This document shows, in pieces, positions 6,411-15,531 of a stretch of DNA of 15,531 bases. Positions within the stretch are counted from its first letter, which is position 1; the number at the start of each line of letters is the position of its first letter. The translations under genes and the position numbers were made by a program. The notes beneath the pieces are model-generated. The model did no database searches. It was not told the DNA's origin and saw only the letters and a list, made by a program, of their open reading frames with translations. Where the stretch lies: the UHGV virus genome UHGV-1641076; one strand, given 5' to 3'. This DNA is from a virus.

Positions 6411-7436
6411 TTACGCCAGTTGTACGGACACGAACGCATCAGGATCAGCCAGCAGCATCAGCGGTGCTGACTGAATCATGGTGAACTCACGCGCCGGATC
6501 GCCGGTGGTCACCCAGTTTTTCGGGTAGCGGGCAGAGGCGTTAATACCTTCGCGCTGTGCGTCCGCATCCTGAATGCAGCCATAGGTGCGCAGACCGCGT
6601 GCCTGAGTGTTTCCCAGCACCATCGTGTTGTCCGGCAGGAAGTTCTTTTTGACGTCGTTTTCCACGTACTGTCCGGAATACACGACGATCGCCGTATCGC
6701 CATACATCCCCTTATAGGACACCGCTTCGCCCAGGTCTTTTACCGCTGTCTCCAGCTCGGAATTAGAGCCGCGACGGGTATCCAGCTTCTCCTTGACGGC
6801 TTTGAAGGAACGGAACAGCGCCCAGCCTTTCGGATCAAACACGATGATATTCACCACGCCGCTGGCGTTCAGCGCGTAGGCTTCGATATCGTCGGTCGGG
6901 TCATACGTGGACTTGTCACGCTTGCTCCACTCCGTGCCGCCGGACTGCGTGATGTTGTTCGCCGCACTGCGGCCCATATCCACCTCAACCGGATCGAAGG
7001 CTTCACCGGTCATGGTGTATTTGCCCTTGAGCACGGCAGAAACTGCCTGCATCTCTTCGACCTGAGCAATGGCCAGCTCTTCGTCACGCATGTTCTGCAG
7101 GATGATGCGACGGCGGCGGTAAGCCGGGTCCGCCAGATTCTGCGGATCTTCATCCGGCAGGCGACGCAGGGTCATCTGCGGATTCACCTCATGCTTCGGC
7201 TTGACATAACCCGGCGTAAATTCAGAGGTGGAGCCGCCACGGGAACGGATAACCTCACCGGAAACAATTGGCGAAACGTACAGCGCCATGTTTACCAGTC
7301 CAGGAATTTGTGAGAGATAGACTTTCTCCGTGGTGAAGGGATAGCTCTCACGGAAAAAGAGACGCAGAAACAGCGGATCAAACTTAAATTTCTGCTCATT
7401 TGCCGCCAGCAGCTGGGCGGTTGTGTACATCGACAT
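6411..7436 (-). CDS. E: Major capsid protein E (341 aa)
   Basis: The track ORF is 350 aa. The likely true start is the ATG at 7436 (MSMYTTAQLLAANEQKFKFDPLFLRLFF...), giving 341 aa as in lambda gpE. The sequence matches lambda E in my recall. Confidence 0.93.
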   Translation of the reverse strand: MSMYTTAQLLAANEQKFKFDPLFLRLFFRESYPFTTEKVYLSQIPGLVNMALYVSPIVSGEVIRSRGGSTSEFTPGYVKPKHEVNPQMTLRRLPDEDPQNLADPAYRRRRIILQNMRDEELAIAQVEEMQAVSAVLKGKYTMTGEAFDPVEVDMGRSAANNITQSGGTEWSKRDKSTYDPTDDIEAYALNASGVVNIIVFDPKGWALFRSFKAVKEKLDTRRGSNSELETAVKDLGEAVSYKGMYGDTAIVVYSGQYVENDVKKNFLPDNTMVLGNTQARGLRTYGCIQDADAQREGINASARYPKNWVTTGDPAREFTMIQSAPLMLLADPDAFVSVQLA

Positions 7437-9153: not shown

Positions 9154-12834
<3,681 letters not shown>

Positions 12835-12860
<26 letters not shown>

Positions 12861-13380
12861 TCAGCAACCCCGGTATCAGTTCATCCAGCGCGGCTGCTTT
12901 GTTCATGGCTTTGATGATATCCCGTTTCAGGAAATCAACATGTCGGTTTTCCAGTTCCGGAAAACGCCGCTGCACCGACAGGGGGATCCCGTCGAGAATA
13001 CTGGCAATTTCACCTGCGATCCGCGACAACACGAAAGTACAGAATGCGGTTTCCACCACTTCAGCGGAGTCTCTGGCATTCTTCAGTTCCTGTGCGTCGG
13101 CCTGCGCACGCGTAAGTCGATGGCGTTCGTACTCAATAGTTCCTGGCTGGAGATCTGCCTCGCTGGCCTGCCGCAGTTCTTCAACCTCCCGGCGCAGCTT
13201 TTCGTTCTCAATTTCAGCATCCCTTTCGGCATACCATTTTATGACGGCGGCAGAGTCATAAAGCACCTCATTACCCTTGCCACCGCCTCGCAGAACGGGC
13301 ATTCCCTGTTCCTGCCAGTTCTGAATGGTACGGATACTCGCACCGAAAATGTCAGCCAGCTGCTTTTTGTTGACTTCCAT
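12835..13380 (-). CDS. Nu1: Terminase small subunit Nu1 (181 aa)
   Basis: 181-aa ORF MEVNKKQLADIFGASIRTIQNWQEQGMPVLRGGGKGNEVLYD... with an N-terminal winged-HTH DNA-binding region. It is the first gene after cos, as in lambda. Confidence 0.93.
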
Positions 13381-13557: not shown

Positions 13558-13569
13558 AGGTCGCCGCCC
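13558..13569 (-). other. cosN: the 12-nt cohesive-end sequence GGGCGGCGACCT (reverse complement of plus-strand aggtcgccgccc)
   Basis: Exact match to the lambda cohesive end. It is flanked by ...GTTACG on the lysis side and CGCGGGTTTTCGCTATTTATGAAAATTTTCC on the Nu1 side. Confidence 0.9.
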
Positions 13570-13822
13570 CGTAACGGCCCGGATCGCCGGAAAGGACCCG
13601 CAAAAATGATAATGGTTATCATTTTCAATGTAGTCCAGTTTCTTCCACCATCGCACCGGACAGGCGACTATGAGGGGACAACGCCGCGCTCCGTTAACGC
13701 GGTAAACCCCGGTGTGTATCGTTTTTGATTATCCCCGCACACTCGCGCAGAGGAGTCTCCCTGTCGGGCTGCGGTCTCTGTTAATGAGGGAATACAGCGA
13801 CGATACGGCGCATCAACAAAAC

Positions 13823-14296
13823 TTATTTCAGGCACTGAGTGCGGATATAGTCCTGTGCCCCTTCCAGTTGCTTGTGCATCGTCATCAGCCGCTCTCTGAG
13901 GGTGAAATAATCCCGTGTAACGGTGTCTGCCAGTTGGGGGCCGGTTGCATTATCCACGCCGGAGGTGGTGGGGGCTTCACGCACGGAGCCTGGACAGGTG
14001 GCGTTGATCCGCAGGCGCTTACGACCAGCGGCAACATCAGCGCGCAGAGTTTCATTTTCAGCTCTCGCATCGGATAATTCCCTCGAGTATTTTGCATCGA
14101 GCGCAGCAACATCGCGCTGGCGCACCTGCATATCAGTAATGGTTGCGTTCGCCAGCTTCAGTTCACTGGCTTTGTTATCGCGCTGCGCTTTGTAGGTAAT
14201 CGCGTTATCACGGTAATGGTCTGTTGCCATCCACAGCGCACCACAGGCCACCAGCAGAATAACGATAAACGCGGAAAGCATTCGGTTTATGTTCAC
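13823..14296 (-). CDS. Rz: Rz i-spanin (inner-membrane spanin subunit); start is either the GTG at 14296 (157 aa) or the ATG at 14281 (152 aa)
   Basis: N-terminal TMD ([16 protein letters not shown]) followed by ...[16 protein letters not shown]...[24 protein letters not shown]..., clearly similar to lambda Rz. The GTG at 14296 overlaps the stop of the upstream small ORF (GTGA), suggesting translational coupling. Confidence 0.88.
13885..14070 (-). CDS. Rz1: Rz1 o-spanin (outer-membrane lipoprotein), embedded in the +1 frame of Rz (about 61 aa)
   Basis: Embedded [64 protein letters not shown]. It has a lipobox (LVVSAC, or VSAC) and a proline-rich stretch, and resembles lambda Rz1. The start is assigned to the internal ATG at 14070. 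Confidence 0.85.
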
Positions 14297-14424
14297 CCCA
14301 GCAACCCCGACGAAGACAACATCATCCAGGCCATGGAAAGAAAAAGAGCAACCAGCATTAGTGAAAATGAAATGCCGACAATTACACAGAGGATCTTCGC
14401 CAGCGTTATGAGTTTGTCTGACAT
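14293..14424 (-). CDS. Small hydrophobic protein (43 aa, one predicted TMD), function unknown
   Basis: ATG at 14424 preceded by a strong Shine-Dalgarno (AAGGGAGGA, 6-nt spacer). Product [43 protein letters not shown]: a short positively charged N-terminus, then about 25 hydrophobic residues. The stop overlaps the Rz GTG start. Confidence 0.6.
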
Positions 14425-14438
14425 GCTTAATCCTCCCT

Positions 14439-14621
14439 TCACGATTTCAACGCAATGACCAGTTTTGCCAGCCCATACAGCATCGGGGACACAGCAACAC
14501 CGACCGCCACCCACTTAATGGCAAAAGCCAGTGCTCTGCTGATGTCATCAGTTACAGGCGCTTTCAGTTCAAGGCCATTTTTCATAGTCAACCTCAACAG
14601 AATTCGTTTATACTTCGCCAT
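14439..14621 (-). CDS. Small membrane protein (60 aa from the ATG at 14621, or 48 aa from the ATG at 14585), function unknown
   Basis: Product [60 protein letters not shown]. The second ATG has a GAGG 6 nt upstream. There is one Gly/Ala-rich hydrophobic segment. Its stop codon TGA lies inside the Shine-Dalgarno of the next small gene. The track's upstream start at 14654 is a GTG inside the terminator hairpin and is unlikely. Confidence 0.55.
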
Positions 14622-14654
14622 GTTCTCCCTTGCCTTACTCAAGGTCAGAAACAC

Positions 14655-14697
14655 AAAACCCCGCTTGGTGCCAACAAACGGGGTTTTTACTTTTATT
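14655..14697. terminator. Intrinsic-terminator-like hairpin, potentially bidirectional, between the endolysin gene and the small ORFs
   Basis: Stem AAAACCCCG (14655..14663) paired with CGGGGTTTT (14679..14687), with a loop containing the palindrome TTGGTGCCAA. On the plus strand it is followed by TTTTTACTTTTATT; on the minus strand by UUUUGUGUUU. Confidence 0.6.
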
Positions 14698-14777
14698 CAC
14701 TTACGTTTCGCCAGTTCGCAGGATTTCGTGTTATCCGCCCGCGTGGCCATACCTTATTTTTCAGCAAAATATTCTGC

Positions 14778-15311
14778 TTATCTGTCGATTCCCCAGCACG
14801 CCAGCGCGCTCTCCTGGTCACGACGGGATACCTGACCATAACAGTTATTTGAGCGGATACGGCAGTCTCTGCCACCGTCCTTAATCCACCAGCGAATCGC
14901 CTCACACGCTCCCCTGCGGTCACCAGCATTCAGCCGCTTATAAAACGTCGACGGGAAACACTTACCGGGGCCAATGTTATAGGGACAGAATGACGCTATA
15001 CCCGCTTTCTGTGGTTCGGTCAGTGGAACTTTAATATTGCGCTCCACCCATGCCAGCGCCTTATCCCGTTCAATGGCATTAACCTGGTCGCATTTTTCCT
15101 TCGACAGTTTCATGCCCGGAATAACAGGTTTACCATCCACCATTGTGGCACCGCGGCAGATGGTCCAGATACCCGCACCATCACGGTATGCCGTTGTGTG
15201 GTTACCTTCTTTTTCATCCAGAAACTGGTCGAGAATATCAGGCGCAGGCGCACCGATGGCAATCAACGCCAGAACGGCAGCCGACAGGCCATATTTGATT
15301 TTGGTGTTCAT
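14778..15311 (-). CDS. R: SAR endolysin, T4-lysozyme-like (GH24) muramidase, 177 aa
   Basis: The N-terminus MNTKIKYGLSAAVLALIAIGAPAP is a weakly hydrophobic Gly/Ala-rich signal-anchor-release type segment. It is followed by EGNHTTAYRDGAGIWT, i.e. the E-x8-D-x5-T catalytic triad spacing of T4 lysozyme. The gene sits upstream of Rz/Rz1. Confidence 0.85.
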   Translation of the reverse strand: MNTKIKYGLSAAVLALIAIGAPAPDILDQFLDEKEGNHTTAYRDGAGIWTICRGATMVDGKPVIPGMKLSKEKCDQVNAIERDKALAWVERNIKVPLTEPQKAGIASFCPYNIGPGKCFPSTFYKRLNAGDRRGACEAIRWWIKDGGRDCRIRSNNCYGQVSRRDQESALACWGIDR

Positions 15312-15394: not shown

Positions 15395-15476
15395 CCTGAT
15401 GGCTGAAATATATCTGACAATTTCAGTAGAGGATTAACCATGCATAACGATCAACATAATTATGATTTATGCCTGC

Positions 15477-15531
15477 GGTGATGCTGCCAACTTACTGATT
15501 TAGTGTATGATGGTGTTTTTGAGGTGCTCCA
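15477..15531 (+). mobile_element. IS1 insertion sequence, left terminal inverted repeat and first about 55 bp; the element continues beyond the window
   Basis: GGTGATGCTGCCAACTTACTGATTTAGTGTATGATGGTGTTTTTGAGGTGCTCCA matches my recall of the IS1 left end (terminal IR GGTGATGCTGCCAACTTACTGAT, followed by the lead-in to insA). insA would start just past the window edge on the plus strand. Confidence 0.85.

Follow-up and report, generated by a model that had tools for sequence, protein, structure and literature searches.

What does a strong hairpin do in the middle of a phage lysis cassette, directly on the path of the polymerase that must transcribe the genes on either side of it? The window examined here, a stretch of 15,531 nt taken at its full length, is a lambda-like E. 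coli prophage whose late genes are all on the minus strand. Along that strand come the R endolysin, the hairpin, geneA, geneB, Rz/Rz1, cos, Nu1, the large terminase subunit, and the head and tail genes. A first-pass annotation made from the letters alone had reported a GC-stem hairpin with U-tracts on both sides between the endolysin stop and a pair of small genes; this was borne out by direct reading and by a consensus scan of the 15.5-kb window, in which the hairpin (13 pairs, 6 G-C pairs, 7-nt loop) ranked first of 19 terminator-like sites. Its placement of the hairpin inside a late operon of the kind normally transcribed by Q-antiterminated polymerase is supported as well. The 231 nt centred on the hairpin match E. 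coli O104:H4 strain FDAARGOS_349 with 100% identity.

The R endolysin (14778-15311, minus strand, 177 aa) is a GH24 phage lysozyme (Pfam Phage_lysozyme, E 2.8e-25), and its hydrophobic N-terminus suggests the signal-anchor-release type. The hairpin lies 90 nt 3′ of the endolysin stop and 33 nt 5′ of the geneA ATG (14621). On the endolysin side it is bordered by a conserved non-coding 3′ flank of 80 nt (14698-14777, minus strand), which occurs in at least three alleles that recombine and is kept in both the Type 1 and the Stx-type contexts described below. A search of this flank for a conserved ORF or an obvious structure found none, and a short ORF of 17-19 codons was rejected because its frame differs between alleles. 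On the other side, the leader of geneA (14622-14654, minus strand) holds a Shine-Dalgarno sequence, AAGGGAGA (14625-14631), overlapped by a small hairpin, CCUUG-7 nt-CAAGG (14628-14644). One and the same leader serves geneA, geneA′ and, in Salmonella, geneC, and this recurrence together with the overlap suggests that the leader hairpin may limit translation initiation.

The two small genes, geneA (14439-14621, minus strand, 60 aa, phrog_1115) and geneB (14293-14424, minus strand, 43 aa, phrog_4906), each encode one hydrophobic helix, and a 19-residue hydropathy window gave values of 1.9-2.9 for the single hydrophobic stretch in each of geneA, A′, B, C and D. Pfam and NCBIfam searches of the small proteins returned no family, PHROGs returned only families without assigned function, and a protein-guided scan of species-representative genomes with geneA gave no confirmed relative. 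A second in-frame ATG, at codon 13 of geneA and with a GAGG in front of it, is a candidate for the real start; in Sakai prophage Sp4, only this shorter form (37 aa; L134 8615-8728) is open, after an 8-codon upstream ORF, so that the start of geneA given here is tentative. Downstream, geneB abuts Rz with no hairpin in between. Stx phages match the geneB stretch in megablast, and phage P27 has a small ORF annotated just 5′ of Rz, suggesting that geneB is also present in these phages. The i-spanin gene Rz (13823-14281; Pfam Phage_lysis, E 7e-47), with the lipoprotein gene Rz1 embedded in another frame (13885-14070), is followed by a lambda-type cos site with lambda-like flanks (about 13558-13569, complement of GGGCGGCGACCT), and then by Nu1 (12835-13380) and the large terminase subunit (10935-12860), these genes again on the minus strand. 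Two more strong late-strand terminator-like hairpins lie in the late head-gene operon, at 9087-9066 and at 6408-6391, the latter directly 3′ of an ORF ending at 6411 that is probably the major capsid gene.

On the plus strand, positions 14655-14687 read AAAACCCCGCTTG-GTGCCAA-CAAACGGGGTTTT, followed by TACTTTTATT up to 14697. A 13-bp stem pairs 14655-14667 with 14675-14687 around a 7-nt loop (14668-14674), with a G+C core of CCCCG/CGGGG, an A-run on one flank and a T-run on the other. Read in the late (minus) direction, the stem is followed by GUGUUUCUGACC, the complement of 14643-14654, and the U-rich run at its 3′ side spans 14643-14658 (UUUUGUGUUUCUGACC); in the plus direction the corresponding run spans 14684-14697 (UUUUUACUUUUAUU), the distal portion of which, CTTTTATTCACTTA, is already part of the conserved flank 3′ of the endolysin gene. 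The folding energies, which the first-pass annotation had named as a check, agree with a strong structure in both orientations: the 43-nt RNA reaches -18.1 kcal/mol on the late strand (z -4.14) and -15.1 kcal/mol on the plus strand (z -3.56), with none of 200 dinucleotide shuffles as stable in either case. A terminator "d-score" formula came out negative even on a control terminator and was dropped in favor of folding energy and U counts.

The first eight nucleotides after the stem contain six U on the late strand (UUUUGUGUUUCU) and six on the plus strand. The plus-strand run is the cleaner one and the late-strand run is interrupted, so that termination in the late direction may be partial. 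The stem is better on the late strand, where a U.G pair takes the place of a C.A mismatch on the plus strand. The earlier claim that the hairpin is an even better terminator on the plus strand is thus right about the U-run and wrong about the stem, for which the pairing and covariation of 17 variants, given next, also favor the late strand. Its stable G+C-rich stem-loop, the U-rich run 3′ of the stem and the helix kept in evolution are features of an intrinsic terminator, and on both strands the single stem has an A-run 5′ and a U-run 3′ of it, the layout of a bidirectional terminator, which makes it also competent to halt transcription from the opposite side. From the minus side, the late operon arrives; on the plus side there is a predicted promoter 70-95 nt away and no protein gene at all.

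To see which RNA is under selection, 17 distinct, closely related Type 1 variants were aligned in both orientations. Read as late-sense RNA, 96.8% of the alignment cells are paired and the covariation score is 0.096, a value that none of 500 shuffles reached; read as plus-strand RNA, 90.0% are paired and the score is 0.037, reached by 1 of 500. Two late-sense pairs have changes on both sides, and one pair occurs in four types (UG 12, UA 2, AU 1, GU 1) while the same pair is mismatched on the plus strand in 14 of the 17. There is also one A-U to G-C double change among the variants, the late-sense hairpin is the more stable orientation in 16 of 18, and the loop variants GCTGCC, GCAGCC and GCGGCC lengthen the stem in late-sense RNA only. 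In three cases (CCTC, GAACCCC and the Sakai form of the Stx-type hairpin), a single change leaves the position paired, as G.U, in the plus-strand RNA alone, so tolerance is not confined to the late strand. These three substitutions had given a first impression that the plus-strand RNA was the selected one, which the formal count on the 17 variants overturned. As the variants are closely related, the shuffle control overstates significance and the independent double changes number only two or three; pairing and covariation thus favor the late-sense RNA as a tendency rather than a proof.

The element is widespread. At least 80% of the 231-nt query is found in 994 of 5,426 complete E. coli genomes, roughly a fifth, and the same query matches many temperate phage records; among species-representative genomes, the exact hairpin pattern hit one Escherichia locus and two chance look-alikes (Volucribacter and a Blastocatellia MAG). 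We assembled a comparative set of more than 200 loci, partly by scanning IMG/VR with the R 3′ flank and the geneA leader as anchors and partly from annotated phages and genomes. Across this set, only two kinds of hairpin occur about 90-110 nt after the stop of a GH24-type endolysin. Type 1, the hairpin of the window, is followed by one of several small genes with one hydrophobic helix each: geneA (phrog_1115), its shorter relative geneA′ (phrog_4493; ECs_1094 in Sakai Sp4) or geneC (phrog_6632), the last with three different leaders; in all, at least four different small genes are preceded by the same hairpin. Type 2 is unrelated in sequence (core AGGCACC-ATTAC-GGTGCCT), occurs in Stx phages and in Sakai Sp6, Sp9 and Sp11, and is followed by the antirepressor gene ant; its U-tail is on the late strand only, with 5 U in the first 8 nt versus 2 on the other strand.

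That two unrelated hairpins occupy the same place and are both terminator-like in the late direction suggests a late-sense role at this position. A late-strand U-rich run after the stem is kept in every downstream module class (GUGUUUCU, GUUUUUAU and GUUUUCUG), where the sequences are otherwise unrelated and the comparison is one of U counts only. Hairpins before small membrane-protein genes have A- and U-runs on both sides, whereas the hairpin before ant does not. The hairpin is absent from E. coli K-12 Qin, where rrrQ overlaps rzpQ, and a literature search on this hairpin element found nothing. The late-operon intrinsic terminator is a familiar type of element, of which this hairpin would be a common example that lacks annotation.

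The comparison also bears out the proposal of a module boundary, since the hairpin lies exactly on a mosaic joint, with small genes swapping downstream of it and unrelated genes upstream. In the GH24-linked copies, the loop variant tracks the R 3′ flank allele (GTG with a, CAG with b, CTG with c), and the class of the downstream gene reassorts freely. Elsewhere, hairpin, leader and small gene move as one behind upstream genes of unrelated kinds: an M15 peptidase (L139), where the hairpin lies 8 nt after the stop and has the A-U to G-C double change; in E. fergusonii, a GH19 enzyme (L225), with two hairpin-led small-gene cassettes in tandem; a Salmonella lysozyme (L222); and a 143-aa ORF (L141), where the hairpin lies 6 nt after the stop. 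In the E. fergusonii locus (CP079884; L225 1175-1500), the first tandem small gene ends in ...KWW and is followed by an apparent remnant Rz start, suggesting that the cassettes were stacked by recombination at the small-gene/Rz junction.

The same annotation had gone further and called the small genes a moron-style insertion, and here the data disagree. A moron is an insertion of promoter, gene and terminator in lambdoid phages (PMC4104026). The cassette resembles morons in its variable extra genes between conserved late genes, with at least five alternative fillings between R and Rz, and in its sharp boundary. It differs in that the hairpin lies 5′ and not 3′ of geneA and geneB, leaving no terminator downstream of the inserted genes, and in that the protein genes lack their own promoter; a promoter-terminator layout exists only in the predicted antisense unit discussed below. 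No usable sense promoter was found between R and geneA, the best minus-strand site scoring 4.98 and being placed to start downstream of the ATG. With the hairpin upstream, only 33 nt left to the geneA ATG and no sense promoter, the unit is not a moron.

Our preferred reading, to which we give a probability of about 0.6, is that the hairpin is a Rho-independent terminator, or insulator, in the late lysis cassette, probably selected mainly as late-sense RNA structure, and, as part of the same estimate, that a portable unit begins with it on the 5′ side. This unit, lying between the endolysin gene and Rz/Rz1, would consist of the hairpin, a short leader that carries the ribosome-binding site and a gene for a one-helix membrane protein. 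The structure, its conservation, the late-strand covariation and the position on the mosaic joint are direct observations; the course of transcription across it is a prediction from lambda, in which terminators are ignored by Q-modified polymerase. Polymerase not modified by Q, coming from leaky or foreign promoters such as those of an upstream insertion sequence, would release its transcript at the U-run after the stem, and the small membrane proteins, the spanins and the packaging genes would consequently stay silent in the lysogen. Q-modified polymerase from pR′ (Q and pR′ both lie outside the window) would transcribe through the hairpin, which would be retained in the long late transcript and could also shield the upstream S-R message from 3′ exonucleases. 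Terminator-like sites such as the two in the head genes would be tolerated in the late operon because Q-modified polymerase ignores them.

Among the closest known systems are the lambdoid late-operon terminators, lambda tR′ with its downstream sites and tR′ of Stx phages (PMC7547250), which have in common with the window a G+C-rich stem, a U-run and the pR′ unit, and for which the expectation would be the same, that only unmodified polymerase is stopped. Unlike tR′, the window hairpin lies between R and Rz and not beside pR′, is symmetric and two-way, and sits on a mosaic joint.

A second reading looks to the opposite strand. It had been noted that no plus-strand gene lies upstream of the hairpin; this is correct for proteins, but a sigma70-like site, TAGTCA-18-TATACT (14585-14614, plus strand, antisense to geneA codons 3-12), would start a short plus-strand RNA there. 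The site is in the top 0.03% of window positions in a position-weight scan, and its predicted start, ~14621, is the geneA start codon. The predicted RNA of ~70-77 nt (14621-14697, plus strand) would comprise a 5′ stem-loop, an A-rich linker (AGAAACACAAAA), the terminator hairpin and a U tail, and would be complementary both to the Shine-Dalgarno sequence of geneA and to its start codon. The hairpin could accordingly also, or mainly, terminate a short cis-antisense RNA (~70-95 nt) from a promoter in the small gene's first codons, a possibility that we take seriously but rate below even odds. At the same tentative level, the RNA might pair in lysogens with leaked late message and either block translation or trigger cleavage, directed against a potentially harmful membrane protein; with the sense terminator, it would form a double lock, or it might alternatively act in trans like the short prophage sRNAs. 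All of this is compatible with the late-operon terminator reading.

Several features of the related cassettes point in this direction. The geneA′ class (Sakai Sp4 and L139) has a homologous and stronger site, TGGACA-18-TATACT (score 10.54), and in the geneC family, which is unrelated, a promoter of the extended -10 type, TCGAAT or TCGCAA-17-TGcTAAAAT (score 9.0-10.2), would begin transcription at the geneC start codon; it is kept in E. fergusonii (10.21) and, in weaker form, in Salmonella (TAATAT, 6.86). The predicted start is 66-71 nt from the end of the stem in the principal classes of geneA and geneC; this distance is 77 nt in a single variant of geneC, and in geneA′ it is 92-93 nt. The background per 130-nt one-strand window, from 752 kb, is 0.10 at a score of at least 8.06, 0.046 at 9.03 or more and 0.0175 at 10.2 or more, so low that two independent promoters would arise jointly with a chance of about 1e-3 to 5e-3. 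The predicted RNAs fold as 5′ stem-loop, A-rich linker and terminator (z -2.5 to -3.3), and the symmetry in A- and U-runs is found at the hairpins of small membrane genes and not at the ant hairpin. Short antisense-oriented sRNAs are, moreover, an established class in the late regions of EHEC lambdoid prophages (AgvB, AsxR and HnrS; PMC4104026, PMC13502914).

Other features speak against it. The Sakai Hfq-crosslinking list (Table S2) has no peak at the Sp4 hairpin, nor at the R-ant hairpins of Sp6, Sp9 and Sp11, a weak negative given that the list's distance filter could exclude the site. The promoter hexamers lie within the best-conserved N-terminal codons, where protein constraint may account for their conservation, and an AT-rich gene start will often mimic a -10 box when read on the other strand. 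In geneD (L225), the fourth small gene, the site is no more than weak (score 5.35). Stem pairing and covariation favor the late-sense strand and not the plus strand, and the plus-strand T-run is perhaps a mere complement of the A-run that strengthens the sense terminator.

A bolder form of the antisense proposal, to which we give slightly lower odds again, would make the hairpin a common 3′ end for a family of prophage antisense RNAs not described before, combining a two-way terminator with a promoter hidden in the first codons of the small gene. At the same odds, such a cassette would shut off its own protein gene in two ways in the lysogen, through sense termination and through antisense RNA over the ribosome-binding site, and release it only under Q antitermination. 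Since the 5′ part of the RNA would vary with the gene and the 3′ part would be constant, some versions could act in trans on host messages, as do AgvB, AsxR and HnrS.

P22 sar, which covers the ant ribosome-binding site, and lambda OOP are phage cis-antisense RNAs that end at intrinsic terminators. The RNA predicted here, ~70 nt long, would resemble them in having its promoter in or next to the target, in being complementary to a translation start and in ending at a hairpin with a U-run; it is unlike them in sequence, in its target, which is a small membrane-protein gene of the lysis cassette, and in being a prediction only. Type I toxin-antitoxin loci such as hok/sok pair a small hydrophobic protein with a short antisense RNA from a promoter in the 5′ region. 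In the window, too, the protein is small and hydrophobic and a predicted short antisense RNA would cover its translation start; unlike in hok/sok, the protein gene is embedded in the late operon without a dedicated promoter, no constitutive promoter of its own having been found, and it has no Pfam or NCBIfam family match.

Also comparable are AgvB, AsxR and EcOnc03 (PMC4104026) and HnrS (PMC13502914), short EHEC prophage sRNAs oriented against the late operon. The predicted RNA would share with them the lambdoid late region, the antisense orientation, a length of 50-70 nt and an intrinsic terminator; AgvB, AsxR and EcOnc03 have a conserved 3′ part and a variable 5′ part. Identity with AsxR, AgvB or HnrS was rejected, as the AsxR terminator is unrelated in sequence and the HnrS/EcOnc12 locus lies elsewhere in the window (13634-13831); the Pas sRNAs were set aside as a match since they lie upstream of the holin. 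Rfam, run over the whole window at gathering score, gave no match, including to AgvB (RF02702) and AsxR (RF02703), and at a permissive threshold the antisense-RNA region matched only the rimP leader, at 25.6 bits versus a gathering score of 47 and driven by the terminator.

Two observations concern neighboring RNAs. The stretch at 13634-13831 (plus strand) shares 95% identity with the stretch of Sakai Sp9 immediately behind Rz, which holds the Hfq peak EcOnc12, that is HnrS, a 66-nt sRNA repressing hha (PMC13502914), and it contains a promoter-like site, TTAACG-17-TATCGT (score 8.64), with its -10 at 13717. Ribosome profiling of Sakai gave a low-level "novel small gene" candidate, XECs106 (NC_002695 1184893-1184994, plus strand; PMC5597208, S2 Table), which corresponds to about 14722-14823 of the window, just past the Sp4 hairpin, antisense to R and overlapping its end; because this region is present in several copies, the assignment of the candidate is tentative, and it is uninformative for termination.

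The hairpin might instead act after transcription, as a 3′-exonuclease barrier or processing landmark in the Q-antiterminated late transcript, which would give the holin-endolysin segment a lifetime different from that of the spanin and packaging segment; we consider both parts of this unlikely as the main explanation. Selection on late-sense RNA structure is what such a role would predict, and the hairpin does lie directly after the stop codons of several unrelated upstream genes. If Q-modified polymerase ignores the hairpin, termination matters only in lysogens, and intercistronic stabilizing hairpins are well known from E. coli operons. Stabilization, though, would not require the U-rich run that all downstream classes have kept after the stem, and the symmetry of A-run and U-run is typical of terminators. 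A barrier role is compatible with the terminator role. Least probable by far is that the hairpin has no function and is a shared short "linker" that persists through repeated homologous-recombination crossovers between mosaic phages: the loop variant's linkage to the R-flank allele while the left modules reassort, and its travel with the left module elsewhere, do place crossovers at or beside the hairpin, but compensatory and wobble-preserving changes keep the helix, Stx phages hold an unrelated hairpin at the same place, and both flanks keep their U-runs.

Terminators within late operons under Q control are ordinary elements and mostly of help in annotation; the proposed portable cassette and the candidate antisense RNA may raise the interest of this one somewhat. 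The comparison locates mosaic exchange in the lysis cassettes of E. coli prophages, including relatives of Shiga-toxin phages, and defines a portable unit of hairpin, leader and small membrane-protein gene without assigned function, sitting among lysis genes. It further predicts that about 1,000 sequenced E. coli genomes, O104:H4 and O157:H7 among them, encode a new antisense RNA, and start-site and 3′-end data exist for Sakai in the form of dRNA-seq and Term-seq (GSE143631; PMC7547250).

One last observation concerns the edge of the window upstream of R. In this copy, its last 55 bases (15477-15531) resemble the terminal inverted repeat of IS1, which we take them to be, and this IS1-like end interrupts a plus-strand ORF of 104 aa that starts at 15440 and has no Pfam match. 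The same ORF is intact and free of the insertion in O104:H4 FDAARGOS_349 (L004 3881-4195), indicating that the window comes from a different strain or copy and that the stretch 5′ of R is disrupted in it.
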